Part shown: positions 739-26,364 of the stretch, in pieces
How positions within the stretch are numbered: the first letter of the stretch is position 1
Layout of the letters: each line of letters begins with the position of its first letter
DNA from: Myxococcota bacterium
GTDB taxonomy: Bacteria > Myxococcota_A > SURF-8 > G963663525
Direction: 5' to 3'
DNA length: 30,235 nucleotides
Assembly (NCBI GenBank): GCA_963676915.2
Contig: CAXXVK010000008.1
Location: 1 to 30,235, forward strand
Notes under the pieces: model-generated
Database searches by the model: none
What the model saw: only the letters and a program-made list of their open reading frames with translations
What the model was told of the DNA's origin: nothing
Program-made: the position numbers and the translations under genes

Positions 739-750
739 CTTCCTAAAATT

Positions 751-2176: not shown

Positions 2177-2268
2177 AAGGTTTCCTTCAACATGCTCGAT
2201 GGAATATTTTAAGACCTTTTCCTGTAGCCTATATTATCACTGGATACAAGCTCGGAATGGAAAACCGT

Positions 2269-4598
2269 TTACCTTTCGGAGTTCACCTTGGAAGAGCCTT
2301 CGAAACGGATGAGGTGAATCAGGGAAGGTGTAATGAAGAAATCGGCCAGCAAGGCGAGGAAAACGGTCATTCCGGAAAGCAGGCCAAACCCAGGCTGTCG
2401 GTGTGAAATTGGAAGTGACCAGCACCCAGAATCCACAGACCAGCACCACCGACGTGAACAGAATAGCTCGACCGGTCGTTGTGAAGGTTCGGGCAATGGC
2501 AAGCTTTCGGTCCTGAGTCTGTTCCAGTTCTCGACGAAACCGCAAAATGAAATGGATCGTATCGTCTACGGCGATACCGATGGCTACCGAACCGAATCAT
2601 CGTTGGTGGCGACGTTGAGGGAAATACCTACCCATCCCATGAGTCCGAGGTTGATCAATACGGGCAGCACGTTGGGAAGCATGGCAATCAGTCCCAGCTT
2701 GATGCTGCGTGTCACGAACATCATGGAAATGCAGATCACGAAAAAGGCCAGCAACAGCGAGGCGACCTGTCCGCGAACCAGGGTCACGACCATGTTGGCA
2801 TAAAGGACACTGGTGCCTGTGACGTGGACCTCAACGGGGTATCCTTCGAAGATCTCAGCGATTTTTGCCTTGCTTTGGTGAATGATATCAATGAGTCTCG
2901 ATGTGCTTTCCACTTTCAGACGAGCCGAGATGCGGGCTTCGTCCGTGGTTGGAGCGAGGATTTCCTCCAGTTTCTCCACTCCGCCGGACGATCGGTACAG
3001 CAACAACATTTGGGCGGCGCGCTTGTCGGGAATCGGGAAGGCGATAGTAGTCTTCGTTGTCCTCGTTGAGCGCTCGGTTGATCTCTTTATAGAAATCGGT
3101 CACAGCAAGAGGATTGTCGATTTCCGCGGGAAGGTTTTCAGCCAGTTTTGTAATTTCTCGACACGTTGCAACAGGTCCGGGTCGTACAGACCGCCTCGCT
3201 CTTCTCTTGTTTCTTCATTCACGCGCAGGGTGATGTCAAAGGGGTGACGCTCCCGACAATCGCCCGTTGATGAACGCGGAGGCGATGCGAATTGGCGCGG
3301 ATTCGTGAAAATACTCGATCAGGCGAGTTTCTACACAGAAGTCTTGGAATGCCGCTCACTGAGGCCAGAAGTAAAATGAAGGTGACAAGCAAGATGGTTT
3401 TCGGTCGGGTTTCGCATAATTTCGTCATAAAGACGAGGAAACGGCGAACCGCGCCTTCATCGAGAGACTTACGTTGTCGAGCTTTAGGAGTGGGTAAAAA
3501 AGAAAGGATCTGAGGGACGACGAACAGCCCTACAACAAACATGATGGTAACGCCTACCGTGGCGAACATACCAAACTTTCGTACGGGCAGCACTTCGGCG
3601 ATAGACAATGACATGAATCCGAAAGCGGTGGTGATGGTCGTCATGAGACAGGGAAGCCACAAGTGGGAAATCGTACGTCTCAGGGCTTCGAATTTTGCAT
3701 GTCCCTGGCCCAACATTTCGTAATACGTAATGATTACGTGGATGGTGATAGCCACCCCGATGACCAAAGCAAGGGGTGGTAGAATATTGTTGATCATGCT
3801 CATACGCTCGCCGATAAGGTATATCCAACCCATCAGCCAGACGCCACCTACCTGAACGACGATAAACGGCAGGATCGTCGCGGAAAACGAGCGAAAACTC
3901 AGGTACAAAAGAGATAAAAGAACAAGGATCGTTATCAGCGTGAAGCTGTTTCTATCTTTGTGCTGGTAGCTGGCGAGAGATCGTGTTTCAGTTACAGGTG
4001 GACCGGCGAGGTAGGCCGGAAAGCGGTCGAACGGCGCTTGCGATATTTTTTCGCGAATAGCTTCGACGGTCACGCCATAGACGTCCGGGTGTTCCTCGGA
4101 GGGTTCCGGGACATCCACGATCACGACACCGACCCGGCGGTCTGTGGAAAACAGCGTGCCGACGTAAGGAGGATGGGCGAAACGCTTCCTTCGCCAATTA
4201 CATCGGCTTGTTGCTGTGTTTGCGGAAGTTCCTTCATCATTTCTTCAACCTGAAGCGCATCGTTGGCATAACGGGCGATTTTCAGGTTGGTCAATGCCGT
4301 GGGTTTCCTCGACGAGCGGGGAGAGCTTCCAAGGCTTCGCGCAATCGTTCCAGGTAGGCCAGGTTATCGGGATGAAACACCGTATCTTTGAAATCAACGG
4401 CAACGATGATGATGTCACCGGCTCCGAAAATCTCCTTCATTCGATTGTTGGAGATCAAGTCGGGGTCGTCGGAAAGCACCATGGATTCGACGGAGGTTTC
4501 GTATTCCACACTTGTTGTATGCCCAACCGCCCCAGAATCGTGAGCGCAAGGACGACAAGAAGCATAGGAATACGCAGTTTTAGAACAAGTTCCGACAT
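2269..4598 (-). pseudogene. MMPL/RND-family membrane transporter, fragmented by multiple frameshifts (possibly sequencing errors)
   Basis: Fragments 4291-4509, 3219-4124, 2584-3009 and 2269-2545 give N-terminal TM MSELVLKLRIPMLLVVLALTILGG, LAGPPV, PCLMTTITTAFGFMSL, VHVTGTSVL, GLIAMLPNVLPV and TTTGRAILFTSVVLVCGFWVL. This is the two-repeat MMPL architecture. Confidence 0.8.
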
Positions 4599-4745: not shown

Positions 4746-4773
4746 GAAGAGCAGGTCACAAGACCTGCTCTTC
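4746..4773 (-). terminator. Rho-independent terminator of the hmc-rnf operon
   Basis: Perfect 12-bp stem GAAGAGCAGGTC-ACAA-GACCTGCTCTTC, 35 nt downstream of the rnfB stop, followed on the minus strand by TTGTTTGTT. Confidence 0.75.
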
Positions 4774-4807: not shown

Positions 4808-6940
4808 TCAGACCTGCGGTCCGTTTTCCTCTCCTTTGCCGAGTACCCATTCGAGGAAGTTAACCTTCTTGGGTTCACGCTGTTCGTCTTTCGAATAGCA
4901 AATGGTTCCGCATTTGAGGCAACGCTCGGCTTCGCTTGCGATTTCTTCCTGTGTCAAGGTGAATTCCACCTCGTCATAGCTGAGAATTCGTTCTGCCGGA
5001 TCGAGTTCCTTCAAGGTTACGCGGTGGTTGTTGGATTCTACACCGTTGAGATCCGCCAGTAGCGAAACGGTCATCCGATCCGTTTGCATGTTTTTCGGAA
5101 GGGTGATTTCTTCCTCGTTCAGGAAAGAGTGAATGGCGCGGGCGGCTTTACGTCCGCTACCGATGGCGGTGACGGCCAGCAAAGGACCGGTCAGGCCATC
5201 GCCCGCCGCAAAAATCTTCGGAATTCCGGTCTGGCAGGTGTCTTCGTTAGCGTCTAAGGTATTCCAACGGGTTACCACCAAGCCACGTTCTTTGAGTTCG
5301 TCCTCTACGAACGAGGCATCTACACGCTGTCCGATGGCGGCGATAATCGCATCCAGCTCGATGAATTTCTCGGAGCCTTCTTTCGGCACAGGGCGACGAC
5401 GACCGGAAGCGTCCGGTTCGCCAAGCTCCATTTCGATGACTTCCAACCCTTTCATTCGACCGTTTTCATCGGGAACGACCTTGGTTGGAGCCGTGAGGAA
5501 CATGAAATTGATGCCTTCTTCCTGCGCGGCGTGAATTTCCACCGGGTTGGCAGGCATTTCCTTCAAGGTACGACGATAAATGATGCTGACTTCTTTGGCA
5601 CCTTCGCGCAGAGCGGAACGGGATGCGTCGATAGCCGTGTTACCACCACCGATAATCGCCACGCGGTCACCGAGATCCACTTTTTCACCTTGCTCACGTT
5701 TGGCGAGGAAGTGAATGCCGCTCCATACGCCGGGAAGATCTTCGCCTTCCACACGCATCGTCGAGTTGACCCACGCACCAACCGCTACCAGCACGGCATC
5801 GTAATCGCGTTCCAGCTCACTAAGTTGGATATCTTTACCCAAACAAACGCCGGTTTTGGCTTCTACGCCCATATCGAGAATGCATTGGATGTCCCAGTCC
5901 AAAATCCGTTTGGGAAGGCGATATTCGGGAATACCGTAACGTAGCATTCCGCCTAGATGATCCTGGTTTTCGAAAATCGTGGGGCTGTGACCTAAACGAC
6001 GGAGGAAATAAGCTGCCGTCAGTCCAGCCGGACCACCACCGACGATAGCAACGCTCTTGCCGGTATCGGGCAGGCGAGGCAGTTCGAGCGGGCCATTCTG
6101 TGTGCGTTCCCAGTCGGCGACGAAACGTTTGATGGTGTTGTGGTACACCGAATCGTCTCCAATGGTGCCACGGCGGCAACCTTCTTCACAGGGAGCCGGA
6201 CAAACACGACCGCAGACGCTCGGTAGAGGGTTACGGTCTTTGATAATGGTCAATGAGGTTTCGTAATCGCCTTTGGCGGCGGCTTCCACGTAACCCTGAA
6301 TGTCGATCTGAGCCGGGCAGAGTTGACGGCAGGGAGCGAGGCATTCATCCACCGTATTGAGGTGGGTCAGGTAGGAGGACAGAGTCTGAATCTGGATAAC
6401 GTTGTGGGGACAGACCCGCACGCAAGCACCGCAACCACGACAGGCGTCTGCGTTGAATTTCGGATAGCCGTCTTCTCCCATACGGATCGCGTCAAAAGAG
6501 CAAGCCTTTACACAAGAGCCTAATCCGAGGCAACCTTGTGTACAGTTCGAATACCCTCCGAACATGTCCGCCACGGCCTGGCAATCCATCGCTCCATCGT
6601 ACAGAAATGTACTTCCAGCTCGGCGATTGCCACCACAATAAGGTTTTGCGAGTTTGGGTTCCTGTACCGTCACGGCCACCCCCATGGCAGCACCAACGGC
6701 CTTGGCCGCATCGGGACCACCGGCCACGCAGCCGTCAACAGGCGCCTCGCCCTTGACGATTGCCTCGGCCATCGATGAACACCCCGGATACCCGCATCCA
6801 CCACAGTTCGCACCGGGCAGCGCTTCCAGAACTTCATCGATCCGGGGATCGCTTTCGACGTAAAAAACCTTCGAAGCGAAGGCCAGACCGACCGCCGCGA
6901 CGAGTCCTAAAACCACCATCAACGTTGCTGCGCCTATCAT
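4808..6940 (-). CDS. rnfB: RnfB fused to a GltD/NfnB-family FAD- and NADP(H)-dependent oxidoreductase (710 aa)
   Basis: RnfB part: N-terminal TM, LPGANCGGCGYPGC, CLGLGSCVKAC, CRGCGACVRVCP. GltD/NfnB part: APCRQLCP, NPLPSVCGRVCPAPCEEGCRR, FAD motif VGGGPAG, YGIPEYRLP, nucleotide motif IGGGNTAID...IYRRT, AAGD, C-terminal EAERCLKCG. Confidence 0.93.
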   Translation of the reverse strand: MIGAATLMVVLGLVAAVGLAFASKVFYVESDPRIDEVLEALPGANCGGCGYPGCSSMAEAIVKGEAPVDGCVAGGPDAAKAVGAAMGVAVTVQEPKLAKPYCGGNRRAGSTFLYDGAMDCQAVADMFGGYSNCTQGCLGLGSCVKACSFDAIRMGEDGYPKFNADACRGCGACVRVCPHNVIQIQTLSSYLTHLNTVDECLAPCRQLCPAQIDIQGYVEAAAKGDYETSLTIIKDRNPLPSVCGRVCPAPCEEGCRRGTIGDDSVYHNTIKRFVADWERTQNGPLELPRLPDTGKSVAIVGGGPAGLTAAYFLRRLGHSPTIFENQDHLGGMLRYGIPEYRLPKRILDWDIQCILDMGVEAKTGVCLGKDIQLSELERDYDAVLVAVGAWVNSTMRVEGEDLPGVWSGIHFLAKREQGEKVDLGDRVAIIGGGNTAIDASRSALREGAKEVSIIYRRTLKEMPANPVEIHAAQEEGINFMFLTAPTKVVPDENGRMKGLEVIEMELGEPDASGRRRPVPKEGSEKFIELDAIIAAIGQRVDASFVEDELKERGLVVTRWNTLDANEDTCQTGIPKIFAAGDGLTGPLLAVTAIGSGRKAARAIHSFLNEEEITLPKNMQTDRMTVSLLADLNGVESNNHRVTLKELDPAERILSYDEVEFTLTQEEIASEAERCLKCGTICYSKDEQREPKKVNFLEWVLGKGEENGPQV

Positions 6941-6998
6941 GTGTACCTCTCGAATGCCACGTCATTTACGACGCCGCCCGAAAAGAAAATCGAACCCG

Positions 6999-7571
6999 TT
7001 AAATCATTCCTTTGAACGCGAAGAAGGTCAATGACATAAATCCTGCCGTAACCAGACCAATCGCCGTTCCCTGCAGAGGAACGGGAATCGGAGCGAACTC
7101 GAAGCGTTCGCGAATACCCGCGAAAAGGATCAACGCCAGACCGAAACCAGCAGCGGAAGACATGGAAAATACAATGTTTTCCAGCGGGCCGTGTTCGGCT
7201 TTGATACTCAGAAGAGCCGCACCAAGCACCGCACAGTTCGTGGTGATAAGCGGCAAAAAGATGCCCAGCGCCTGATACATCGCAGGAACGGCCTTTCGTA
7301 AAAACATCTCGACGAGTTGGACCAATGCTGCGATGACCAGAATAAAGGCCAGTGTCCGCAAATATTCCAACTCGAAGGGAACGAGCAGGTAGTGCTCGAC
7401 CACCCAGGCGATGAACGAGGCCAGCGTCAGAATGAACAGCACAGCTCCCGCCATACCGATCGCCGTGTCCATTTTCTTCGAAACGCCGAGAAACGGACAG
7501 TTGCCGAGGAACTGAGCCAACAGAATGTTGTTGACGAAAATGGCTCCGATGATCATCAGGAAATAATCCAT
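6999..7571 (-). CDS. rnfA: Rnf electron transport complex subunit A
   Basis: NNILLAQFLGNCPFLGVS and GIFLPLITTNCAVLG with both Fe-S-ligand Cys present; hydrophobic 190 aa protein. Confidence 0.96.
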   Translation of the reverse strand: MDYFLMIIGAIFVNNILLAQFLGNCPFLGVSKKMDTAIGMAGAVLFILTLASFIAWVVEHYLLVPFELEYLRTLAFILVIAALVQLVEMFLRKAVPAMYQALGIFLPLITTNCAVLGAALLSIKAEHGPLENIVFSMSSAAGFGLALILFAGIRERFEFAPIPVPLQGTAIGLVTAGFMSLTFFAFKGMI

Positions 7572-7637
7572 CGTTCAATTTCCCTTAATAGTAAGTGTCG
7601 TGAATCGTTGCATTTCGTTCCAATTCGGTGCTTGTTA

Positions 7638-8246
7638 TCAAGCTTTGGCCTTGGCGACTTTCGGACGCCCAAGGACGTTCATGACGCCAAGCATCAGTCC
7701 CAGGCAGACAAACGCGCCGGGGGCCTGTTGCATGAAAGAGAAGGCTTTGAAATCCGGTCCAAATACCGAGATTCCTAAAAACGTGCCGGCTCCAAGTACC
7801 TCACGCAATGCGCCCAATGCCGAAAGAGCAAGGGTGTAACCGATACCGATACCTAAACCATCGGCAGCGGATAACAACACGCCGTTTTTCCCGGCGAAAG
7901 CCTCAGCACGTCCCAGAATGATGCAGTTGACGACAATCAGCGGGATAAAGATGCCCAAGCTTTGAGAAAGCGAGAAGAAAAACGCCTTCATGAGAATTTC
8001 CACCGTCACGACGAAAGTCGCGATCACCACGATGTATGCGGCGATACGGACTTCCTTTGGGATCACCTTTCGCAACGCGCTGATCAGCATGTTGGACAGC
8101 GTAAGCACGAAAATGACCGATGCTCCCATGCCAATGGCGTTCTCGACGGAAGTCGTCACCGCCAGGGTCGGGCACAGTCCGAGAACCAACCGAAACGGCG
8201 GTATTTCTTTCCAGAGTCCCTTGGTAAATTCCTTAGTAAAACCCAT
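7638..8246 (-). CDS. rnfE: Rnf electron transport complex subunit E
   Basis: LGLCPTLAVT, IPKEVRI, GIFIPLIVVNCIILGRAEAFA and PGAF motifs. Confidence 0.96.
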   Translation of the reverse strand: MGFTKEFTKGLWKEIPPFRLVLGLCPTLAVTTSVENAIGMGASVIFVLTLSNMLISALRKVIPKEVRIAAYIVVIATFVVTVEILMKAFFFSLSQSLGIFIPLIVVNCIILGRAEAFAGKNGVLLSAADGLGIGIGYTLALSALGALREVLGAGTFLGISVFGPDFKAFSFMQQAPGAFVCLGLMLGVMNVLGRPKVAKAKA

Positions 8247-8266
8247 CGTTCGCTCCCGATTCCCGG

Positions 8267-8869
8267 TTACTTGCCTTCGGTCTTGGCTTGTTTCGCGGCT
8301 TTTAGGATTTCGTCTTTATGTTCTTTGTAAAACGTCGTACCTTGGCGAAGCGCTTCACAGACGGCGCGTGACGTTACGGTCGCACCTGAAACGGCATCGA
8401 CTTGTCCGCCATCCGCTTTTACTTTGAAAACGGTATCTTTTTTCATGCCTTTGAACTGCTTCAAAAACGAATCGTTCTTGGCACGAGTTCCGACGCCGGG
8501 CGTTTCGGACATCGTCGTGATGCCGATTCCGATCAAATCGTCCGTTTTCGTGTCGAAACCGATCATGACGCCAACATCTCCGCCAAAACCTTTACCGGAG
8601 GATTCCAAAGCGATGCCGTAAATGTCCGAGCCTTTTTTGGCAGGAAACAGCAGATGCTTGTCTTTCGGTCCCAGCTTGAGTTCGCGGCGGTCGTCGAGCA
8701 GGTTGTTATCGGCATCGGCCATAACCTTTTCGACGGCAGGCATTTTCATGTTCTGCAAAATCTGAACGTCGATACGTTCTTTGGTCCCGTTGTACAATCC
8801 ACCCAGCGCAACCCCGCTGATCAGGCAGATCAAGGACAGCGAGAGGACCATGCTGACGGCTTTAGGCAT
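8267..8869 (-). CDS. rnfG: Rnf electron transport complex subunit G (FMN-binding)
   Basis: N-terminal TM, GKGFGG, SETPGVG and intact flavinylation motif DAVSGATVTS. Start moved to ATG 8869, which has an RBS GGAGAAG. Confidence 0.93.
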   Translation of the reverse strand: MPKAVSMVLSLSLICLISGVALGGLYNGTKERIDVQILQNMKMPAVEKVMADADNNLLDDRRELKLGPKDKHLLFPAKKGSDIYGIALESSGKGFGGDVGVMIGFDTKTDDLIGIGITTMSETPGVGTRAKNDSFLKQFKGMKKDTVFKVKADGGQVDAVSGATVTSRAVCEALRQGTTFYKEHKDEILKAAKQAKTEGK

Positions 8870-9719
8870 AATTCTTCTCCATGGCAATCGGCTTGGGCTG
8901 GATGCGATCGAGCAACGGGGACAACAGGTTACCCAGCAAAACGGCGAACGGTACGACTTCCATCCAGATGCCGTAAACCCGGATCATCATTACCAGGATA
9001 CCGATAATCAATCCGTACAAAAGTTGCGGCAGTTTATTGGCCGGAGAGGTGGTGTTGTCGGTGGACAGGAAGAACAGTCCCAACATGACGTGACCGGTCA
9101 GGAGTTGTTCGAAACATGGTCCGACCGTTTCGGGATATATCTGGTGGAAAATCCCACCACTGACCATCACGCCAACGAAAAAGGCCAATGGAATCCGCCA
9201 GTTGATCCAACGGAAGAGCAGCAAAAACAGTCCACCGGCGGCCACGGCATACACGGACCAGGGATGTCCCGTGCCGATGGTTTCTCCACCGATGGGAGCG
9301 AGCATTCGGGGCCAGGACAACAACAGCATCAGATAGCCGATCAACACCGGATGGAAGGCATAACATCCCAAACCGCCGAAGATCTGTTTCGCGACCACCA
9401 CAGCTAGCGCCATTCCAAGAATCACCATAAATAACGGCACGTTGGGCGGCATCAGCAGGGTAAACAGGATACCCATGAGAATCGCGTGGCCATCCAGCGC
9501 ATAAATCGGTTGTTTGAAAACGTATTGCGTCAAGGCTTCCACAAGAACGCCGGTCACTACGGCCAGCAGCAGCACCAGAAAGGCACGCGGTCCATGCTGC
9601 CACAATGCCACCAGCACGGCGGGAGCCAGCGCCAAAGCCATCATATAATGGCTTTGCACCGTTCCTGCACCCGCTCTTAGGTGAGGAGAAGGTCCGACCC
9701 TGAGTATTTTATTCGCCAT
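8862..9719 (-). CDS. rnfD: Rnf electron transport complex subunit D (short form lacking the FMN loop)
   Basis: SPHL, DGHAILMGILFTLLMPP, AKQIFGGLG..FHP, FLSTDNTTSP and FAVLLGNLLSPLLD. Only 285 aa, with no [ST]GAT motif. Confidence 0.92.
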   Translation of the reverse strand: MANKILRVGPSPHLRAGAGTVQSHYMMALALAPAVLVALWQHGPRAFLVLLLAVVTGVLVEALTQYVFKQPIYALDGHAILMGILFTLLMPPNVPLFMVILGMALAVVVAKQIFGGLGCYAFHPVLIGYLMLLLSWPRMLAPIGGETIGTGHPWSVYAVAAGGLFLLLFRWINWRIPLAFFVGVMVSGGIFHQIYPETVGPCFEQLLTGHVMLGLFFLSTDNTTSPANKLPQLLYGLIIGILVMMIRVYGIWMEVVPFAVLLGNLLSPLLDRIQPKPIAMEKNYA

Positions 9720-9780
9720 TTCGAAACTCCCAAAGATCCGGCTTGTGAAAAAAAAGAAAAAAACCGGAGATTACGGAATG

Positions 9781-11016
9781 TTATTCGCTTTTCGCCAAAT
9801 GTTTTTTACCCATCGTGAACCACTGCTTCAACGGTCTGTAACTTGGACAGACATAAGTGCACAGGCCGCACTCGATGCAGTAATCCAGCGTTGCAACTTC
9901 TTCGTAGCGTCCGTACTCGCAATATCGCCCCATCTCCTGCGGCTGCAATCGCGCCGGACAAACGGCAGTACATGCACCGCAATTGACACAGGGTCGCGAC
10001 CGAAACTCGTCATGTTCGGCGGCGGGAATCACCGTGAGGCCGTCCATTCCAGCCAATACGGGGGTGTTGGGATCGAATTGCGCAAGTCCCGACATGGAGC
10101 CACCGAACAGCAGACGATCCCCGGATTCGTAAGCGATTCCGGCTTGCTTCAAGACATCACCGGCACGGGTTCCGACCAGAACGCAAAGGTTCTTTTTGGA
10201 ACCATCACGCCCCACGACCGTCAGATCACAGAAACGCGGCAGGACGCCTTTGGTGATAATCGAATGGAAAGCCAACGCGAGATGTACCGAAATGACGGAG
10301 ATTTCGCCGTTTCCACCTTGATTCGCCATCGCGGTCTTGATCAGGCGATCGAAGGAGGTGGGGTATTTGTCATCCAGTTCCAGAGATCCCGTACCGAGCG
10401 CTTTGAATTCGTCCGATACTGCTTTCGGCAATGCAAAGCGGATCTGGCTGGCACCGAACAGCTTTTTGACGGTTTCGGCGGCAACTTGCAACTCTTCCAG
10501 ACTTTCACGACTGCGTTGCACTCTTGCCGTCAGTCCGATGTCGATATCCGCCCCACTGATCACCAGGATATCCGCCTTCGGATTGCTTCCGTCGGCCCAG
10601 GGGAAACCGGCATCGAAGGAAAATCCGGCCAGTGTAGCCGGAAGTCCCGCCTTGCGGATCTGATCCCATAACGCTTCGGAATCATTGGATTCCACCGGAT
10701 CGATTCCGGGTTCATCCTGTTGCGCGTTTTCGGGAACGATGCGCAGCACGGGAACGGCACGCAATCCCGTGGGATAGGGAGCCACCGTGATTTCTTCGAT
10801 TTTGCCGCTCACCGGACATCGAAGCTCGTGGCCTTCTTCTCCTGCGACGACGACTCCGGCTTTGACGGTTTCGCCTTTATCGACCACTGGAGACAGAATT
10901 TCTCCATCGTTTCCAACCAGCGGGAAAAGAATCTCACCCACCAGATAGGTTTCGAAGGCCGATTTCTCGCACGAAAGGTGTAACGTTCTTTTTTTCTGCT
11001 CGCCGAACCATCCCAT
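9781..11016 (-). CDS. rnfC: Rnf electron transport complex subunit C, divergent
   Basis: Position at head of rnfCDGEAB; N-terminal VDKGETVKAG...CPVSGKI, KYP, VLVGT...GGSMSG, and two ferredoxin motifs CVNCGACTAVCP and CIECGLCTYVCP. Confidence 0.88.
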   Translation of the reverse strand: MGWFGEQKKRTLHLSCEKSAFETYLVGEILFPLVGNDGEILSPVVDKGETVKAGVVVAGEEGHELRCPVSGKIEEITVAPYPTGLRAVPVLRIVPENAQQDEPGIDPVESNDSEALWDQIRKAGLPATLAGFSFDAGFPWADGSNPKADILVISGADIDIGLTARVQRSRESLEELQVAAETVKKLFGASQIRFALPKAVSDEFKALGTGSLELDDKYPTSFDRLIKTAMANQGGNGEISVISVHLALAFHSIITKGVLPRFCDLTVVGRDGSKKNLCVLVGTRAGDVLKQAGIAYESGDRLLFGGSMSGLAQFDPNTPVLAGMDGLTVIPAAEHDEFRSRPCVNCGACTAVCPARLQPQEMGRYCEYGRYEEVATLDYCIECGLCTYVCPSYRPLKQWFTMGKKHLAKSE

Positions 11017-11069
11017 GGCATCTTCCTTGGGGTTGGTGAAAGAAACTACAATCGTTTACGACAAGAGGA

Positions 11070-12926
11070 TTACAGGGGCAACGCCTCGGCATCGTTCATG
11101 TTTTCGTAAACCGGAAGTCCGAATTCCTCGTGACAGCCCGCACACAGCGTCTTACGCACATCCTTGTAGGCCGGAAGTCCCAGACCCTCCCGCATATGGC
11201 AGGCTCCGCAATGGCCGGGATCGACGGAAGACGGACGGCAATCGTCCACGCTGTGGCTTTCGTCGCATTCCATGACTTTGGGAAGCTGACGCAAACGCGA
11301 TTGGACGTTTTCGGGCTGTTTCATATTGTGGTGACAGTCCATGCAGGGGAAGCCCGCCTGATCGACGTGCACCCGGTGGACCGCAGTGGCATCTCTGCCA
11401 AGTGCCGACGCTGTGGGTAACGATTTCTGCACGATGGAAGTCAGAAGTCGCGTTTCCGCCTCGTCTTTCTCGCCGGATTCCAGGGTACGTTTCGCACGTT
11501 CCCTCTGAGCGAGAGCCTCTTTGCGGGCCTGCGGATAGGCATGACATCCACGGCAGGTCTGCGGTCCCTGCTTGCGTTCTGTGTGACAGTCCTGACAGAC
11601 TTTGTGCAAGGCGTTTTCCATCGCCAGCGGATTGTGTTTTTCGAGGAACAGCTTGTTGGTCGATGCGAAATCGCCGCTCACAGGATCGATGTGGCAGGCT
11701 TCGCAGGTTTCGACTTTCAGCTTTTCTTCGTCGATTTGTTCGTGACATTTCGCGCAAAGTTCGTGTGAAACCTGTTTTAATTCCACAGCGCTTTTCACCG
11801 TGTGGTCCAGGTGACATTCACGGCAGCTACGTTTTTGTTCGCGATCAGCGTCTTCATGGTGACAATGCTGGCAATCCACACCAGCGCCGATGGCGTGGGC
11901 ATCGTGTGTCCAGTTAACCATTCCGAAACTTGCAGGATGCGAATGCGCCGCTTCACGGTGACAGTCGTTGCAAGTAACGGGCATGTCAGAATCGAGGTCC
12001 GGGTTGTCGAAATCGTGGCAATCGAAACAGCGCGAATGCAGGGCGGTTTTCCGTGCCGGAACGGCTTTTCCGGACTTGGTGCGTCCTACGGTGGCTTTAT
12101 GACATTCGCCGCAACGTCTATATTCCTGCGGATTCGCTTTGTCGTCTTCCATATGATGGCAAGTTCGGCAAGTGTAGTCCTTGCCGTCGTAATCCATATA
12201 TTCCAGGTGATGTGCACGATGATCCCAGGCGACTTCACCGGAAAAACCTTTGAATAACGGATCGTGATTGAAAGCGGTTTCGTTTTCCGTTTCGCGGTGA
12301 ATCACGCCGTCATGGCATTCGTCGCATCGGTCCCATTCGCCATCGGCGGGCAGTTCCGTAGGTTGACCTTCGATGTGGCAACGAACGCAGGCAATGGTCT
12401 GTTCCCAAGCATAATGACGGTGTTCGAGAGGTGTTGCACCTCCATCGGAGAGCATTTTGGACTGGTGGCAGTCCCGGCACTGGGTCGGACCTTCGCCTAC
12501 GGCTTGGTGACATCCCGCGCATTTTTTATGAAACGCGACGCGACGGTCTGCGGGCAGGTGCGCGCTTTCAACATCCTTGCCGTGTTCCTTGGCCCAGTCG
12601 GCATAGTCGCTTTTCCGCTCGGTTTCTTCCATTTTAGCATTCGGCTTGGCAGGAAACACAGAGTCTCCAAGCACCCGATGCTTGTGGCAATCCGAGCAGG
12701 CTTGCATGTCGCTGTCACCGGTTTTCGAGGTGTGGTGGCAGACTTGGCAGTTGGCGACGGCTTCCCGAGCGTGCAATGTATGACTCCACGGGACATCGCC
12801 GAAACGGTTGGCCAGAGTCTCATCTGAATCATCGGATGCGAGGAGACTGGCTCCCAACGCACTTAGAAACAGAAAGACGCAAATGACGGACAACCAGAAG
12901 AGCTGGTAGGTTTTGATCGGTTTCAA
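11070..12926 (-). CDS. Periplasmic class III (c3-type) multiheme cytochrome c with 19 CxxCH motifs, Rnf-associated
   Basis: Signal peptide MKPIKTYQLFWLSVICVFLFLSALGASLLA; 19 CxxCH counted by hand; repeated c3 motifs GxVxWxHxxH...CxxCHH; TTG start with GGAG RBS. Confidence 0.92.
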   Translation of the reverse strand: MKPIKTYQLFWLSVICVFLFLSALGASLLASDDSDETLANRFGDVPWSHTLHAREAVANCQVCHHTSKTGDSDMQACSDCHKHRVLGDSVFPAKPNAKMEETERKSDYADWAKEHGKDVESAHLPADRRVAFHKKCAGCHQAVGEGPTQCRDCHQSKMLSDGGATPLEHRHYAWEQTIACVRCHIEGQPTELPADGEWDRCDECHDGVIHRETENETAFNHDPLFKGFSGEVAWDHRAHHLEYMDYDGKDYTCRTCHHMEDDKANPQEYRRCGECHKATVGRTKSGKAVPARKTALHSRCFDCHDFDNPDLDSDMPVTCNDCHREAAHSHPASFGMVNWTHDAHAIGAGVDCQHCHHEDADREQKRSCRECHLDHTVKSAVELKQVSHELCAKCHEQIDEEKLKVETCEACHIDPVSGDFASTNKLFLEKHNPLAMENALHKVCQDCHTERKQGPQTCRGCHAYPQARKEALAQRERAKRTLESGEKDEAETRLLTSIVQKSLPTASALGRDATAVHRVHVDQAGFPCMDCHHNMKQPENVQSRLRQLPKVMECDESHSVDDCRPSSVDPGHCGACHMREGLGLPAYKDVRKTLCAGCHEEFGLPVYENMNDAEALPL

Positions 12927-12989
12927 CGTTCAACTCCAACGTTTCGTGTCATTGGAACAAAAAGTCATCCGAATCGCTTCGAATCCTTC

Positions 12990-13121
12990 CTATTCGTCAT
13001 CGTCTTTGCCACCGGCAAGAAATCTCCAGTAGGCAACGAAACCAAACAGGCAAGTGACGACCACAAGGTAAGTCATACCTTTGGCGTGGGTCATGAAATC
13101 CTGAAGCGTGAAGAACTCCAT
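12990..13121 (-). CDS. hmcD: HmcD small membrane subunit (43 aa; missed by the ORF track)
   Basis: Manual translation MEFFTLQDFMTHAKGMTYLVVVTCLFGFVAYWRFLAGGKDDDE; GAGGAG RBS; directly after hmcC; FxTLxDF..xKG..Y...W.FL pattern resembles Hmc operon protein 4. Confidence 0.85.
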   Translation of the reverse strand: MEFFTLQDFMTHAKGMTYLVVVTCLFGFVAYWRFLAGGKDDDE

Positions 13122-13141
13122 GGTATTCTAACTCCTCGATA

Positions 13142-14314
13142 TCAGTGATGATCCGCGTAATCAGGATGATCGTAGAAAATCGGCATGTGTGTCACGATGA
13201 ATTTGAAGGCCAACACGCCCGCCGTTATGAGGAACAGCGTGGTGCAAATCTCCATCCAGTGCGGGACATACCGTTCATCGGCTGGCAGGTTGTAGTTGAA
13301 AGCAATCAACGACACGTTGAGCCGATTGAAAACGATACCCAACACGGTGATCAGCGCGGTAACGCGAATCAGCGTGAGGTTCTTTTCACGTCGTCCGATA
13401 GCATACAAGAACGACGGCAGCGCTACAAAGCCAAGCAGTTCGACCAGGAACAGATGTCCATAAGGTGTATTGAGCAGGTGCCATTCGTTGTCCAGCGCGA
13501 TACCGATGACTTTCAGTGCGAAATATCCGGCCAACACCCAGGACGCCGCCTTGGCAAAGCCCAACGTGACTTCATCGAATTCTTGGTGATGATGGTGATC
13601 GATGCGGTCTTTGTAGAAATGATGCGACAATGCACCCTCGAACATCACCATCGAAAGACCTGCCGCGATACTCGAAATAAAGAAGTACAGTGGCAAATAA
13701 GGCGAATACCAGAGCGGATGTAGTTTCGTTGGAGCGATCAGGTACATGGCCCCTAGTGAAGATTGGTGCAACGTGGAGAGAATCACGCCGAAAATCGTCA
13801 GCACGATGGTCAGTTTCACGATGAGGTTGCGCAGTTTCTTGAATCCGAGCCATTCGAGCGGCGCCGGGCTGAATTCGAGGAACAATACCGTCAGGTACAA
13901 TGCCACGCAGGCAGCTACTTCGAACATAATCGATGTAGGACCGGCCTGAATGATGAAAGGATACGGCAAACGCCAGGGGCGACCGACATCGTACAGCAAA
14001 GCGATCGGCACCAGGGCATAGCCCAAAAAGCCTGTCAGAATCGCAGGACGTACGGCGGAATGGTACTTTTTCATACCGAAAATATAGACACCCGCCGACG
14101 TGGTGTAGCCACCTGCGGCGAGCGCAACGCCGGTAAGCAGGTCGAAGCCGATCCACAATCCCCATGGGTTGTTGCTGTCGAGGTTCGTCACTGCGCTGAG
14201 TCCAAGGCCGAAACGCATAGCGGTCAGCACCAATCCAAGAAGGATGATGAGTCCGGCCACGATGTTGAACGGCGTGAAAATCGTGCTTTTCTGGGTCGGG
14301 TTTACTACGGCCAT
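13142..14314 (-). CDS. hmcC: HmcC, NrfD/HybB-family integral membrane subunit
   Basis: RFGLGLSAVTNL...PWGLWIGFDLLTGVALAAGG, DVGRPWRLPYP, SIMFEV, LSTLHQSSLG, KLHPLW; about 10 TM segments. Confidence 0.93.
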   Translation of the reverse strand: MAVVNPTQKSTIFTPFNIVAGLIILLGLVLTAMRFGLGLSAVTNLDSNNPWGLWIGFDLLTGVALAAGGYTTSAGVYIFGMKKYHSAVRPAILTGFLGYALVPIALLYDVGRPWRLPYPFIIQAGPTSIMFEVAACVALYLTVLFLEFSPAPLEWLGFKKLRNLIVKLTIVLTIFGVILSTLHQSSLGAMYLIAPTKLHPLWYSPYLPLYFFISSIAAGLSMVMFEGALSHHFYKDRIDHHHHQEFDEVTLGFAKAASWVLAGYFALKVIGIALDNEWHLLNTPYGHLFLVELLGFVALPSFLYAIGRREKNLTLIRVTALITVLGIVFNRLNVSLIAFNYNLPADERYVPHWMEICTTLFLITAGVLAFKFIVTHMPIFYDHPDYADHH

Positions 14315-15381
14315 TACACGTTCTCCTTAGCCTGTTCCTTGAACTTGGCTTCAGCTTCCGTTACCGCCTTCTTGACCGCCTTGGCCGTTTCGGATTCGGC
14401 GCGTTTCTTGGCTTTTTCCAGTTCCTGTTTCAGTTTTTCCTCGCCTTTGCCTTGGGTTTCGGCAACAGCTTTGGCAACGGCTTCTCGCTGTTCTTTGGCG
14501 GCGATTTTCTCTTTTCGCTTATTGATGGCATAGACGCCGGTCAGCAGAACCGGCCATGCTCCGACAACCGCCGGAACCACAGCCAAAGCACCACCGGTCA
14601 ATTCGGACGGCGGATGGTGAGGAACGTTCATCGGCAGGTTGATCTGGTCGAAAGGAACGCCCGACAAAAACAGCCAGTTCGTTCCGGACAGTTCGTTTTC
14701 GCCGTAAATATGGTCGATGTAGCGATCCGGGTGCTTTTTGATGCGTTCGCGTGCGATTTTCAACAAGTCTTCACGTGTGCCGAACGTCAGGGCTTCCATC
14801 GGGCAGGCTTCCACACAGCCGGGTTTGAGTCCCTTTTTGATGCGCGGATGACACATCGTACAACGGACCACCACCGGATCGAAAGCACTGTCATAGGCAT
14901 AGGCGGGCATACTCCAGGGGCAGGCCAGCAAGCAATAACGACATCCTACGCAGACGTCAGGGTTGTAAAGGACCGCGCCTTCGGGAGTTTTTGTAAAGGC
15001 GTTGACGAAACAGGCCGAAGCGCAGGCGGGTTCCTGACAATGATGACATTGTTGTTTACGGAACACCGGACCGTAACCGGGAACTTCGTACTGATTCACG
15101 ACGGTAAACACATTCGTTTTCGTTCGTCGTTTCTTTTTCAGCACCGTCAGATCGTCGAATGGTACATCCGGTTTCGGTTGCTTGTTGACTTCGTTGCAAG
15201 CCGCCTCGCAGGATCGGCATCCTACGCAAAGCGTGGTATCGTGCAACACGCCATACGCCCCCGGATAGCCCTCGTAATGCTTGTGTTGGGCCAGGGCTTT
15301 TTTGCTTCCGACGGTCGCGGCGGCGGTTCCGGCACCTGCCGCCGTGAGAAACTTCAGGAATTTCCTGCGCGATACTGACAT
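14314..15381 (-). CDS. hmcB: HmcB, Tat-exported 4x[4Fe-4S] protein with C-terminal TM helix and coiled-coil tail
   Basis: Tat motif SRRKFLK; [43 protein letters not shown]...PGCVEACP; HIYGENE; TM helix then Lys/Ala/Glu-rich tail. Confidence 0.93.
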
Positions 15382-15413
15382 GAGGGAATCCTCCTGGTTC
15401 GTGTCAGGTTCGG

Positions 15414-17006
15414 TTAATGTACCGCGGCTTCCGACTTTTCGTTATGGCACTGCACGCAGTTCATCGGTTGAGCGATGTCCATTTGTTCGTGACAGCCGAT
15501 ACATTGCTGATGATAAGCGCCTTTCAGTCCTGGACCGAAGAGGTTTTCCTCGCTACGGCCATCTTTGTCATGACAATTCACGCACATCGGCGGTTTTTGT
15601 CCGACCGGAGAGTGGTGATGACATCCGGCGCAGAGAGTATCCTCACCGCCATGGAAGAACTTCGCCATACGGCTGCCGTTGATTCCTTTTCGCAGAGCTT
15701 CGATAATTTGCCGATGCGGGAATACCGAAGGTCCGTACTTGTTTTCAAGGATATCGATTGTCACTTCATTGGGAATTTCGTTCGAAGCGAACGTAAACGC
15801 CTGATAAGGAGCCTGTTCGGGATTGTAATCCGCCATGACGGATTTTTAACAGGTTGCTGCTCGCCGTTTTCTTCGGCTGTTTCCGCTGGTGTTTCAGTGG
15901 TAGGCGGTTCGAAGTGGCATTTCGTGCAGGCATTGTCAGGCAACCGGGCAAAACTCATGAACATGTGGGCACCCGGCGCATTCTTTTTCTTTTTTGTATT
16001 TGTTGTGGCATCCGACGCAGCTTTGCTCGGCGGAGAAGGCATGGAAAGCTGTTTCGAGATTGGCCTTTTTGCCTTTGTAATTTCCTTTGATCGTATGGCA
16101 TTCGTTGCAAGCACGCATCGTGTCGTGATGGCAATCCCGGCAACGCCCGGTATAACGCTCATGTCCCTTATGATTGAAAGGTACGGGGAGCATTCTGGTA
16201 TGGTCTTTGTCTTTTTCGGAAGGAGTCAGCCACGCAACGTCCGGTTGCTCGCCGCTCAGACGCAGTCGAGGAGTGCGAGCCAGTTTCTTGATTTTGGAAA
16301 TATTTTCCGCTTTGTGGCACCCGGCGCAATTGATAGGACCGCTGGAAAGGTTCTGTGACGCTCGGTTCATGTGGCAGGTTACACAAGCCCAGTGAGAAGC
16401 GGTTTTCATCGAAGCCGGTTGGCCTTTTCCACCCGCCTCGTGGCAGTCGCGACAGTTGGACTCGGTTCCTTTTTTGTAGGAAATTCCCTGGCTTGCGTCA
16501 TCGTAGCTGTGGTGGCACTTGCCGCAATCGGAATTCATTTCCTTAATGTGTCGAGCGTGCAGAGATAAATCCATAGGCATCAGTACGCGGTTGGACGTGT
16601 ATTCCGGTTGAACGGCATGGCATTCACCACAAACGACAGGTCCGCTTTCCTTGCCTTGGGCTTTGAGTTCCTTATGGCAGCCTTGGCAATTCGAGTGGAA
16701 ATGATCCATCATCGACTCTTTGTCGGGACCGTCTTTGAGACGCAGGAATTTTTGAGAAAGATACTTTTCGCCCTGTTTGTGACAGGTTTGGCAGTTTTTC
16801 CCCAATTTTTCCAGGGCTTCAGTGTGCTGGTCGTGACCGAACTGCACCGTCGGGCGTTCGAGATCGCCGAATTGCTTCAACGTATCGATCGTCAGCAGAT
16901 CCCAACGTTCGTCTCCGTCATCGTCGGCCCAACAAATGCCTACAGATAGACTTAGAAGCATAAGAACCAGTCCCAACCTGCCTGCCATGTAAACCTTTTC
17001 CCGCAT
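15414..17006 (-). CDS. hmcA: HmcA high-molecular-weight 16-heme cytochrome c (two compensating frameshifts, at ~15968 and ~15845)
   Basis: Joining ORFs 15936-17024, 15761-16162 and 15414-15836 gives 16 CxxCH (the 11th, CAGCH, is restored by removing the extra C), with signal peptide, [27 protein letters not shown] and [10 protein letters not shown]. Start ATG 17006 or 16988. Confidence 0.9.
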
Positions 17007-17273
17007 AGTACTTACCCTGCACAAGGTTGATGTCCGTTTTCCGCATAGTTCGCAAAAACGAACCGTTGCATGACTTTCACGTACTCATCGATAGGGTCAT
17101 AAACAATTTTCGCGATAAAATACAGAAAGGCGAAATCCATCAAGAGGTTTCGTTACAATCGAACGAACCTATAGGACAACGGCCCCCCTGTTTACCGCTG
17201 GAATGTCTTTATTCAGTTTATAATCCTCAGAACACAGTTTCGTGACCTATCAACGTCATCGTTTGCCGTGAAA

Positions 17274-17310
17274 AGTCTCTTTGAAATACCACGTCATGTC
17301 AAGGTATTTC
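17274..17310 (-). promoter_or_regulatory. Putative promoter/operator of the hmc-rnf operon
   Basis: Minus-strand TTGACA (17302-17297), 17-nt spacer, weak -10 GAGACT; the -35 is enclosed by the inverted repeat GAAATACC-N12-GGTATTTC (17283-17310). Confidence 0.35.
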
Positions 17311-17717
17311 CGTTTTTTCGCAGTCTATTGAAATTATAAAGGAAAGATACAGTAAAAACCAATAAAAACAAGTGGATAGGTGAAAAAAAGTGTGTGTTTC
17401 TGTGTAAAATTGTCCTGTTTTTTTTCGAAAATCGGCAAAAAAAACGGCAAGTGCAATTTTCTTAAAAAAATAAGACAGGCCGTACAATTAAAGGTCATCC
17501 AAATATAATATTTGCTATCCAACCTCTCTTGTTGTTTTGCAACTTGCCGATCTTTTGGACCCGATTTTTCCATTCGATTTTTCTTAATGTGGTTTATTCC
17601 TTTTTAATAAAACTTACAAACCAGGATGGCGAGATCGTTTTTATTGGAACAAAATTATTTCTCTGTAAACGGATTTACTATGAACTCTCGACTTTTGTGT
17701 TTCCGACATAAAAGGAA

Positions 17718-17746
17718 TTGACTCTAAACGACGCCTGCACTAGTAT
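17718..17746 (+). promoter_or_regulatory. Putative sigma70 promoter of epimerase gene
   Basis: TTGACT-N17-TAGTAT, 34 nt upstream of ATG 17780. Confidence 0.55.
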
Positions 17747-17779
17747 CCCCCGCATGTTGAAACCGATTGATGGAAGGTT

Positions 17780-18718
17780 ATGACCATGAAATGTCTCGTA
17801 ACGGGCGGCGCGGGTTTTATCGGATCGCATTTGATTCGGAAACTTCTGGATGAAGGGGCCGAAGTACGCGTGCTCGATAATCTTTCGACCGGGCATATCG
17901 AAAATATCGAAGCCGTCTTGGATCGCATCGAGTTTATCGAAGATACCATTACCGATATCGACGTCTGCCAGGGGGCTTGCAAGGGTATGGACGCCGTGTT
18001 CCATCAGGCAGCGATTTCCTCGGTTCCTCGTTCTGTGGATGATCCTTTGCCTTCCCACGATGCCAATGCAACCGGTACGTTGAATATGCTGCTGGCTTCA
18101 CGTGATGCGAACGTTGGAACTTTCGTAGCGGCTTGTTCTTCTTCGGCGTACGGTGATACGGATGTTTTGCCCAAAGTCGAAACCATGCCGACACGGCCTT
18201 CCAGCCCCTATGCTTGTCAGAAAATTCTAGGCGAACTATATTGCGACAATTTCGCCAAACTCTACGGTCTGAAAACCGTTGGGCTACGGTATTTCAATAT
18301 TTTCGGACCGCGCCAAGACCCGAATTCCCCTTACGGCGGCGTGATTCCGAAATTCGCCAGCGCTTTGCTGAATAATCAGCAGCCGATCATTTTCGGCGAT
18401 GGTGAGCAAACCCGAGACTTTACCTATGTGGACAACGCCGTTTCGGCGAACCTCTTGGCGGTCAAAGCTCCGAAATCGGTCGCGGGACGAGTATACAATG
18501 TAGCTTGCGGAACCCGTTTTTCTCTGCTGTACCTGCTTGCCGAAATGCAAAAGCGCCTCGGTACGAATATCGAAGCTCACTTCGAAGATACTCGCGCCGG
18601 TGATGTTCGCGATTCGCAGGCCGATATTAACCGCGCTGCCGAAGAGTTGAACTTCAAGGTTGTTGTGGAATTCGAAGAAGGTTTGGACCGCACGGTGGAA
18701 TGGTACAAAAATTCCTGA
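17780..18718 (+). CDS. NAD-dependent epimerase/dehydratase (extended SDR; WbpP/TviC-like UDP-sugar 4-epimerase)
   Basis: TGGAGFIGSHL, HQAAISSVPRS, SSSAYG, catalytic YACQK, LRYFNIFGPRQDPNSPYGGVIPKF, GDGEQTRDFTYV. Confidence 0.93.
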   Translation: MTMKCLVTGGAGFIGSHLIRKLLDEGAEVRVLDNLSTGHIENIEAVLDRIEFIEDTITDIDVCQGACKGMDAVFHQAAISSVPRSVDDPLPSHDANATGTLNMLLASRDANVGTFVAACSSSAYGDTDVLPKVETMPTRPSSPYACQKILGELYCDNFAKLYGLKTVGLRYFNIFGPRQDPNSPYGGVIPKFASALLNNQQPIIFGDGEQTRDFTYVDNAVSANLLAVKAPKSVAGRVYNVACGTRFSLLYLLAEMQKRLGTNIEAHFEDTRAGDVRDSQADINRAAEELNFKVVVEFEEGLDRTVEWYKNS

Positions 18719-18995: not shown

Positions 18996-19529
18996 ATGGC
19001 CACCGGGAAACGAACAAACTGGGCTGATTTGAACTACGAAGATAACGAAACTCTCGCGTATGCGATTTTACGTTGTGATCTTCCTGAAATTGCACGTCTG
19101 CTGGCTGGCGGAACGGTCAATCCCAACTGGATTTCCGAAAAGCACCGGATGCCTCACCTGAGTCTTGCTGCATATTCCGGGGATTTGTTGGCTGCCCAAA
19201 TGTTGGTCGAGCACGGCGCTTTGGTCAATATGGCGGCGGAAAACGGTTCCACGCCGTTGATGATCGCCGCGCAAAAACGCCATGGCCAGATCGTGAAATA
19301 TCTGCTTTCATGCGGAGCCAACGTCAACGATGTTTCCAAAAATGGCATGACGGCTTTGATGTGCGCCTCGAAAAAGGGCTATCAGGATGTTGTCGATCTA
19401 CTGCTTCATTCAGGGGCCGATTCCCACCTCAAAATGAAAGCCGGTTTCACGGCCAAGGATTTTGCTCGTGTCAACGGGCATTACCACTTGATTCAGCTTT
19501 TCGAGAGAACGCCCGGAAGTCGTAACTAA
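18996..19529 (+). CDS. Ankyrin repeat protein
   Basis: Ankyrin consensus repeats: HLSLAAYSGDLLAAQMLVEHGALVN, GSTPLMIAAQKRHGQIVKYLLSCGANVN, GMTALMCASKKGYQDVVDLLLHSGAD, GFTAKDFA. Confidence 0.92.
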   Translation: MATGKRTNWADLNYEDNETLAYAILRCDLPEIARLLAGGTVNPNWISEKHRMPHLSLAAYSGDLLAAQMLVEHGALVNMAAENGSTPLMIAAQKRHGQIVKYLLSCGANVNDVSKNGMTALMCASKKGYQDVVDLLLHSGADSHLKMKAGFTAKDFARVNGHYHLIQLFERTPGSRN

Positions 19530-19634: not shown

Positions 19635-19784
19635 ATGGCTCGAACTCCGTTTGGGCTTATTGATTACCCGTAAAGATACGTGCTCTGATATTATTTCGAA
19701 TAAAAACATCCTTTTCGTCCTAAAAGCACACAAATTATATATAATACTTATACATGAAAGCATTTGGACGGTCGAGGAGATCCC

Positions 19785-26286: not shown

Positions 26287-26364
26287 AAGACCCCGATTTC
26301 GTTGTATTTACCTCACTGCCCGCATAGCGAACAGTGAGGTTTGTATTTGGCTTGGTACCTATTG

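Follow-up and report, generated by a model that had tools for sequence, protein, structure and literature searches.

Co-location of hmcABCD, a 19-heme cytochrome gene and a Tol2-type rnf set in a sulfate-reducing Myxococcota bacterium

Introduction

The 'Desulfobacula toluolica Tol2-type' Rnf is defined, in passages of PMC5109826 that cite Woehlbrand et al. 2013, by a large RnfB with an NAD(P)-binding part and an RnfC without the NADH/FMN domain, and is also represented by Rnf2 of Desulfococcus multivorans. The same passages describe it as abundant and constitutive in completely oxidising marine sulfate reducers, and state that its redox partners, including the partner of its RnfC, are unknown. 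Here we analyse a Tol2-type Rnf locus of a Myxococcota bacterium (GenBank assembly GCA_963676915.2, contig CAXXVK010000008.1), in which hmcABCD and a gene for a 19-heme cytochrome c precede rnfCDGEAB. The stretch analysed, hereafter the window, is the entire contig C8 (30,235 bases) of a genome (G000) that comprises 74 contigs and is 90.8% complete. An initial annotation of the window had read this gene row as a conduit linking the quinone pool and periplasmic cytochromes to cytoplasmic NADP(H), in which Rnf replaces HmcE and HmcF, and had proposed searching the genome for dsrAB and for a second, canonical rnf. The genome search found both, and the host is a sulfate reducer.

As far as those passages describe them, the Tol2 locus and Rnf2 of Desulfococcus multivorans share with the window an RnfB of about 700 amino acids (aa) bearing the NAD(P)-binding part and the gene order rnfCDGEAB. 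A Desulfobacula RnfC (locus L078), like that of the window, has no match to PF01512. However, the window RnfC is only 25-31% identical to Desulfobacterales Tol2-type copies, its RnfD has lost the entire periplasmic loop whereas those copies have lost only the motif, and its upstream cytochrome carries 19 hemes rather than the 4-8 found in Tol2-type loci. In addition, hmcABCD precedes the window unit. The Desulfovibrio locus dhcA-rnfCDGEABF is comparable in that a multiheme cytochrome gene leads the rnf operon, dhcA being co-transcribed with rnf according to an excerpt of PMC4215793. The window RnfG is of the Desulfovibrio type represented by DVU2794 (NF045876, above cut-off), and Desulfovibrionaceae loci also have a motif-less RnfC and RnfD. 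Unlike the window, the Desulfovibrio rnf has a small RnfB, a 10-heme cytochrome and no Hmc neighbour, and it carries apbE/rnfF inside the operon. In Methanosarcina acetivorans, electrons likewise exit Rnf through a multiheme cytochrome, MmcA, to a quinone-like carrier in the membrane, but this Rnf is archaeal, has ferredoxin as its donor and is not known to have a GltD-like fusion or an adjacent NrfD-type module.

For the genes ahead of rnf, the reference is HmcABCDEF of Desulfovibrio vulgaris. HmcB, HmcC and HmcD of the window score above the equivalog cut-offs, and the 16-heme HmcA does so only when read through a broken frame; in contrast to that complex, the window has no HmcE or HmcF, and its relatives have tmcDCB in front. 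NhcABCD of Desulfovibrio desulfuricans ATCC 27774 and D. piger has the same four-subunit layout of cytochrome, iron-sulfur (Fe-S), NrfD-type and small membrane subunits without E or F (excerpt of PMC4215793), but the window cytochrome is of the 16-heme type, the nine-heme model NF045784 giving 52.8 and 115.4 bits against a cut-off of 640. Na+-NQR, a relative of Rnf, is a functional analogue only: it takes electrons from pyridine nucleotides through an added flavoprotein subunit to quinone and pumps ions. It reduces quinone inside the complex, whereas in the window the quinone step would fall to a separate NrfD-type module reached via periplasmic hemes.

Results and discussion

A row of eleven genes

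All of hmcA-B-C-D, the 19-heme cytochrome gene and rnfC-D-G-E-A-B lie co-directionally on the minus strand from 17,024 down to 4,808. The intergenic gaps range from -26 to 66 nucleotides (nt), apart from one of 99 nt within a broken hmcA; hmcD is separated from the cytochrome gene by 63 nt (12,926-12,990) and the latter from rnfC by 53 nt (11,016-11,070). A terminator scan placed the strongest terminator-like site directly after rnfB, and the remaining sites listed for the minus strand fall within coding sequence. A weak hairpin (-15 kcal/mol) beside a T run in the 63-nt spacer was not called a terminator by the scan. A promoter scan gave 10 sites against 9.5 expected and is uninformative on internal promoters. 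Coordinates, family models and spacers thus agree with the close-packed row of the initial annotation, as does the hairpin behind rnfB, the sole strong one, with its placement of a clear terminator there only. We give about an even chance to the reading that the row holds two modules side by side, one an Rnf of the NAD(P)H/ferredoxin:cytochrome kind and the other a quinone module formed by an Nhc-like Hmc; the two would exchange electrons via periplasmic hemes and are probably expressed together.

A Tol2-type Rnf with altered RnfC, RnfB and RnfD

All six Rnf subunits, C, D, G, E, A and B, are encoded together in the window. A Pfam search found no PF01512 (Complex1_51K) or SLBB match in the window RnfC, which keeps both [4Fe-4S] motifs. 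When aligned to solved RnfC chains, their GLGGATFP and NGAECEP stretches are replaced, and replacement of these GGAxFP/ECEP stretches is common to the seven closest relatives of the window protein. As a control, the canonical RnfC encoded on contig C33 of the same genome scored 170 bits for PF01512. This contig carries the second, canonical rnf, which follows apbE and has a normal RnfC and a 302-aa RnfB; ApbE is accordingly present in G000. A 188-aa open reading frame (ORF) with a lipoprotein-like N-terminus lies between rnfC and rnfD of this canonical set (C33 22941-23507) and may be spurious or an extra subunit.

The window RnfB is a fusion. Residues 1-190 correspond to RnfB, with the membrane helix, PF04060 and a dicluster (rnfB models match residues 1-210), and residues 196-684 form an NAD(P)-binding oxidoreductase (PF14691, PF07992). 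Such RnfB~GltD fusions are very common: the best 120 database matches listed align over 89-100% of the query length with identities of 51-76%, and a large RnfB is encoded in 35 of 69 rnf loci with a motif-less RnfC. Relative to solved RnfD and to the C33 protein, the window RnfD is about 45 residues short in the loop between residues 141 and 155, and a pattern search found no [ST]xA[ST]P flavinylation-type motif. The motif definition is that of PMC8238504, where RnfD is stated to be flavinylated. The loop with its TTATP-type motif is absent from the window protein and from the five orthologues with a correctly read RnfD (G001, G003, G005, G007 and L031), and is present in the C33 RnfD and in one Omnitrophota RnfD. 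The GAT columns of the DAVSGAT site in RnfG are invariant in seven orthologues.

We then turned to a survey of 80 rnf loci, in which the RnfC motifs and the RnfD motif are lost together in 62 of the 63 loci with a complete RnfD. The RnfD motif is kept in seven of nine loci with both RnfC motifs, and the [ST]GA[ST] site of RnfG is kept in 54 of 59 of the loci surveyed. The survey was drawn by a scan seeded with the window RnfC type, using Fe-S motif patterns, and is biased towards this type; it returned mostly distant RnfC (24-38% identity), and relatives at 36-43% identity known from the genome search are missing from it. Because the loci are related and the scan was seeded with this RnfC, the counts describe one lineage rather than independent events. 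A protein-database search with the window RnfC gave 36 matches, four of them close, but its word-based filter probably missed many, since the genome search found more RnfC relatives.

By its domain content, the window Rnf is therefore of the published Tol2-type. The initial annotation was right that the Rnf is modified, RnfC having lost the NADH/FMN domain and RnfB having gained an NAD(P)H-type flavoprotein part, but the Rnf type itself is already known (passages of PMC5109826) and is common in Desulfobacterota, so that its novelty does not stand. The loss of the RnfD loop, the 19-heme partner and the juxtaposition with Hmc are new variants.

A separate observation concerns the dhcA-linked rnf loci L065, L070, L083, L084, L088 and L105 (Desulfovibrionaceae/Mailhella), which encode an RnfC without GGAxFP/ECEP and an RnfD without the flavinylation-type motif; the L083 RnfC matches PF01512 at only 26.9 bits. 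In the literature, the Rnf of Desulfovibrio is regarded as a ferredoxin:NAD+ oxidoreductase, and its NAD site may be worth re-examining.

A 19-heme cytochrome linked to rnf

All 19 CxxCH motifs of the window cytochrome are invariant in four orthologues. Of the 401 phylum genomes sampled, six yielded a member of this family, all of them in the window's class, for which the collection holds only 10 species genomes, and its holders are the same six genomes that have the closest RnfC matches (36-86% identity). In the survey, a same-strand ORF with 4-10 CxxCH ends just upstream of rnfC in 54 of the 69 loci with a motif-less rnfC, compared with none of the nine loci with both RnfC motifs. The window's class lacks this small 4-10-heme cytochrome gene and has the 19-heme family in its stead. 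The placement of the 19-heme gene varies: it is upstream of and co-directional with rnf in G000 and in the sister species G001, and divergent from but adjacent to rnf in G005, G007 and the metagenome contig L129, while related large cytochromes are encoded downstream of rnfB in L031 and L131. As adjacency recurs in different arrangements, it supports a putative functional link between this Rnf and a large periplasmic cytochrome. Such a link had been proposed in the initial annotation and agrees with the position of the 19-heme gene immediately before rnfC. No description of hmcABCD joined to rnf, or of a 19-heme rnf-linked cytochrome, was found in the open-access literature searched.

hmcABCD, Tmc and the broken hmcA

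A profile search for the two subunits missing from the Hmc set gave, as the best match to HmcE in G000, TmcC on contig C5 (196 bits, cut-off 275) and, as the best match to HmcF, TmcB on the same contig (381 bits, cut-off 750); G001, which is 96% complete, has no HmcF above the cut-off. At family cut-offs, the initial expectation that the genome has no hmcE or hmcF is therefore borne out. TmcC and TmcB are paralogues of HmcE and HmcF, and in G000 they belong to an intact tmcD-tmcC-tmcB set (C5 8480-11802) that scores 498 bits for TmcD (cut-off 440), 269.5 for TmcC (240) and 720.9 for TmcB (735), with no multiheme ORF beside it. The tmcDCB copy of G001 is 82-93% identical to that of G000 and is located away from hmc. 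A composite tmcDCB-hmcABC without hmcEF or tmcA occurs in three related genera (loci L124, L125 and L126); we did not find it in the papers searched.

HmcB of the window carries a Tat signal by TIGR01409 (21.5 bits, cut-off 16.7), the corresponding Pfam match being weak (17.9 bits, cut-off 22.7). QrcD was not found in G000, where its best match is HmcC itself at 102 bits against a cut-off of 570. Elsewhere in the genome, behind an ArsR-like gene, contig C9 (15252-19441) encodes a Tat-signal Fe-S protein of 313 aa followed by a 1071-aa fusion of an NrfD/HmcC-like part with 13 CxxCH; in G001, G004, G005 and G007 this HmcC-like match recurs in ORFs of 1074-1086 aa.

In this assembly hmcA is not a single frame, a point absent from the initial annotation. 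The gene reads as 362 aa with 10 CxxCH, then about 40 codons in a second frame with two, and then 140 aa with four, giving 16 in total. Translated across the breaks, the gene reaches 504.5 bits, above the HmcA cut-off of 400, with three internal stops; the separate ORFs remain below that cut-off at 345 and 162 bits. In G001, hmcA is a single intact ORF with 16 CxxCH, and a DNA alignment between the two genes places a single extra C and a single missing base in the window copy, separated by 124 nt. The extra C maps near 15967-15974 and the base loss to the A run at 15843-15847 or a position adjoining it; homopolymer runs contain or adjoin both sites. Word depth over the stretch is only 3.3 in run X1, which contains 99% of it, and the Logan contig built independently from this run is without the extra base at 15967 but does not remove the second break. 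We rate an assembly error as more likely than a pseudogene.

Distribution of the hmc-rnf adjacency

G001 has the full hmc-cytochrome-rnf row too, its proteins being 77-99% identical to those of the window, with HmcB, HmcC and HmcD at 90-95%. The independent X1 contig spans positions 10900-16442 of the window, and a contig from a second study bridges the cytochrome gene, hmcD and hmcC. HmcC (E<=1e-120) occurs in 10 of the 401 phylum genomes, with rnf adjacent in two of the ten. It lies far from rnf in G004, G005 and G007, and in the five further genomes rnfA is on a different contig, three of those HmcC matches being near contig ends. Conversely, rnf stands without an Hmc neighbour in G003, G004, G005, G007 and L129. 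The synteny that the initial annotation had hoped to see in other genomes was thus found in the sister species, but not beyond the genus among the genomes searched. The Hmc-Rnf layout is a shallow, genus-level local rearrangement and is not to be read as a new complex.

A lineage unrelated to the window offers a parallel. In L031 (metagenome-assembled genome record PIVT01000013.1, 6964-11371), a gene for a 528-aa 16-heme cytochrome directly follows a Tol2-type rnfCDGEAB, and is itself followed by genes for a 294-aa Fe-S protein without an obvious Tat signal and a 647-aa fusion of an NrfD-like part with five hemes. This layout, and the lack of a Qrc in the search of G000, both speak for a putative functional connection from hemes reduced by Rnf to a quinone module of the NrfD type.

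Two proposed modules and a possible electron path

What the genes are, which domains they have lost or gained, their synteny and their distribution are observed; on this basis the two-module reading can be cast as a model in which the electron path, its direction, ion coupling, co-transcription and any physical contact are predictions from sequence. Module 1 would be HmcABCD, in which a 16-heme cytochrome of the periplasm is joined by an Fe-S subunit and a membrane subunit of the NrfD type. Because it has the four-subunit architecture of Nhc without HmcE or HmcF, it would most likely pass electrons between periplasmic hemes and menaquinone. Module 2 would comprise the 19-heme cytochrome and the Tol2-type Rnf, with the NAD(P)H site on the GltD-like part of RnfB. 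Electrons from NAD(P)H, ferredoxin or both would enter the flavin and Fe-S clusters of RnfB, pass through RnfA/E to the FMN of RnfG on the periplasmic side, and leave to the 19-heme cytochrome rather than return via RnfD and RnfC; from there they could reach HmcA, HmcB/C and finally menaquinone. The RnfA/D/E core would conserve energy by translocating ions and, in reverse, could drive the reduction of NAD(P)+ or ferredoxin. Together, the modules would link the cytoplasmic pyridine-nucleotide and ferredoxin pools to periplasmic hemes and menaquinone.

For the Tol2-type Rnf, whose partners are described as unknown, the locus thus provides pointers. The NADH site of RnfC and the flavin site of RnfD are lost while the flavin site of RnfG is kept, a multiheme cytochrome is mostly encoded beside rnfC, and in this genus a quinone-facing Hmc module has been added. 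The resulting model, in which electrons exit Rnf periplasmically to hemes and then to menaquinone, is testable. If true, it would explain the large periplasmic cytochrome networks in sulfate reducers without periplasmic hydrogenases, and the layout hints at how cytoplasmic NAD(P)H may connect to periplasmic hemes.

A stronger version of the same path is unlikely in our judgement. It would make the whole row a single, dedicated and co-expressed chain that starts from NAD(P)H, perhaps together with ferredoxin if the NfnB/GltD-like part performs flavin-based bifurcation, and leads via RnfB, RnfA/E, RnfG-FMN, the 19-heme cytochrome, HmcA and HmcB/HmcC to menaquinone. Were this so, the row would encode an ion-pumping NAD(P)H:menaquinone oxidoreductase that combines 35 periplasmic hemes, an NrfD module and an Rnf with a vestigial RnfD/RnfC return path; such an enzyme would take the place of Qrc in this lineage and would answer what role the Tol2-type Rnf plays in marine sulfate reducers.

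Alternative explanations

Several observations weigh against the two-module reading. In G004, G005 and G007, hmcA-B-C lie directly behind tmcD-tmcC-tmcB, contiguous and co-directional, which points to TmcCB, not Rnf, as the probable ancestral cytoplasmic-side partner of this Hmc. The hmc-rnf adjacency is confined to one genus, two of the 401 genomes, and may be a neutral rearrangement. Between the 19-heme gene and rnf lie 1 Mb in G003 and 51 kb in G004, the motif losses were scored by simple patterns on mutually related loci drawn with RnfC as the seed, and hmcA is frame-broken in this assembly, so that module 1 would be decaying here if the breaks are real. Moreover, the rnf-linked decaheme dhcA of Desulfovibrio alaskensis was unimportant for fitness where rnf mattered (excerpt of PMC4215793), and a cytochrome encoded beside rnf therefore need not be an obligatory partner.

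The simplest history would be that a tmcDCB-hmcABCD cluster split in this genus, with hmcABCD landing ahead of the cytochrome-rnf unit. Such a history weakens the idea that Rnf replaces HmcEF, which, with tmcDCB heading hmcABC in three genera and intact elsewhere in G000 and G001, is not supported. An EF-type partner encoded elsewhere, which the initial annotation had itself named as speaking against its reading, is present in the form of tmcDCB as far as can be judged from the genes themselves. What stands of the proposed conduit is a modified, cytochrome-linked Rnf conserved in G001. Two options are live for this Hmc, namely that it works with TmcBC in trans or that it is a four-subunit, Nhc-like cytochrome:quinone module. 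If the former applies, HmcABCD would work with TmcB, TmcC and TmcD from elsewhere while the cytochrome-Rnf unit functions alone, and their neighbourhood would be a neutral, genus-specific rearrangement. The contiguous tmcD-tmcC-tmcB-hmcA-hmcB-hmcC rows, the intact tmcDCB sets of G000 and G001 (the former with no multiheme ORF beside it), the side-by-side placement of hmc and rnf in just two of the ten HmcC-bearing genomes and the five rnf loci without Hmc all fit such a history. We nevertheless consider neutral adjacency somewhat doubtful: the two spacers that flank the cytochrome gene are short, no strong terminator precedes the end of rnfB, and two species and a related population from the second study share the gene order. 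The unrelated L031 also has a 16-heme/Fe-S/NrfD set beside a Tol2-type rnf, and Hmc would be a plausible outlet for Rnf-reduced hemes where no Qrc was found.

It is quite improbable that the row encodes one physical hybrid complex, with the modified Rnf in place of HmcE/HmcF and the 19-heme protein as a fixed bridge. The same Rnf type and 19-heme family occur without Hmc in four other genera, and TmcCB, the HmcEF paralogues that are the operon partners of hmcABC in relatives, are retained. Nhc, an Hmc-like four-subunit complex without E or F, is moreover known to stand alone (excerpt of PMC4215793). These points have to be set against the lack of HmcE and HmcF above the cut-offs in G000 and of HmcF in G001, the tight co-directional row with its single terminator, the conservation of the layout in G001, and the apparent loss of cofactor sites in both RnfC and RnfD, which would leave Rnf in need of a periplasmic partner. 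Very improbable, in our view, is that the hmcA frameshifts are real and Hmc is a decaying remnant, which would leave the cytochrome-Rnf unit as the sole functional one. Although hmcA differs from the intact G001 gene by two one-base indels and the second break is still there in the independent X1 contig, hmcB, hmcC and hmcD are intact and close to their G001 counterparts, both indels are in or beside homopolymer runs, the depth is low and the X1 contig is without the extra base. An MMPL gene in the left flank is also in frame pieces, which fits an error-prone assembly.

Features of the window and neighbouring genes

Table 1. Positions of the hmc, cytochrome and rnf genes and of the flanking control regions in the window.
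Feature	Coordinates	Strand	Evidence
hmcA, 16-heme periplasmic cytochrome	15414..17024 (17024/17006..15414)	-	HmcA model, read-through; two one-base indels
hmcB, Tat-exported iron-sulfur subunit	14314..15381	-	NF045715 482.4 bits, cut-off 420; Fer4_11
hmcC, NrfD-type integral membrane subunit, presumed quinone site	13142..14314	-	NF045714 653.7 bits, cut-off 550; PF03916
hmcD, 43-aa single-helix membrane protein	12990..13121	-	ORF; NF045712 61.1 bits, cut-off 34
618-aa cytochrome c, 19 CxxCH, N-terminal hydrophobic segment (signal peptide or anchor)	11070..12926	-	motif count
rnfC variant, C-terminal 2x[4Fe-4S] kept, Complex1_51K and SLBB absent	9781..11016	-	TIGR01945 161.8 bits, below cut-off 245.95
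rnfD, 285 aa, flavinylation loop absent	8862..9719	-	alignment to canonical RnfD
rnfG, FMN_bind domain and DAVSGAT site	8267..8887	-	NF045876 222.6 bits, cut-off 205; PF04205 61.6 bits
rnfE	7638..8246	-	PF02508 215.8 bits
rnfA	6999..7571	-	TIGR01943 257.3 bits, cut-off 229.3
rnfB~GltD/NfnB-like iron-sulfur flavoprotein, 710 aa	4808..6940	-	NF009410 530.3 bits, cut-off 516
intrinsic-terminator-like hairpin, 12 pairs, 7 G-C, T-rich tail after	4746..4773	-	-26.8 kcal/mol for 81-nt stretch
A+T-rich spacer, hmcA to divergent epimerase gene; presumed promoter region	17025..17779	.	GC 0.407 for 17001-18000

The divergent epimerase neighbour of hmcA is also present in G001. To the left of the row, positions 743-4124 on the minus strand hold seven short ORFs, three of which match successive parts of the MMPL family (PF03176); they appear to be an MMPL/RND-type transporter gene cut by several frame breaks, either a pseudogene or a product of indel errors in a low-depth assembly. 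On the other side, a MotA/ExbB-family protein, a 1341-aa CobN/Mg-chelatase-family protein and a TonB-dependent receptor are encoded in a row on the minus strand (21668-28635), a probable cluster for metal or corrinoid uptake and chelation. The plus strand encodes a 177-aa ankyrin-repeat protein (18996-19529) and then a 506-aa ORF (19764-21284) without a Pfam match, around which the GC skew is strongly positive (0.21 for 20001-21000). At the start of the contig, a protein with a PHB/PHA accumulation regulator DNA-binding domain is encoded on the plus strand (137-502).

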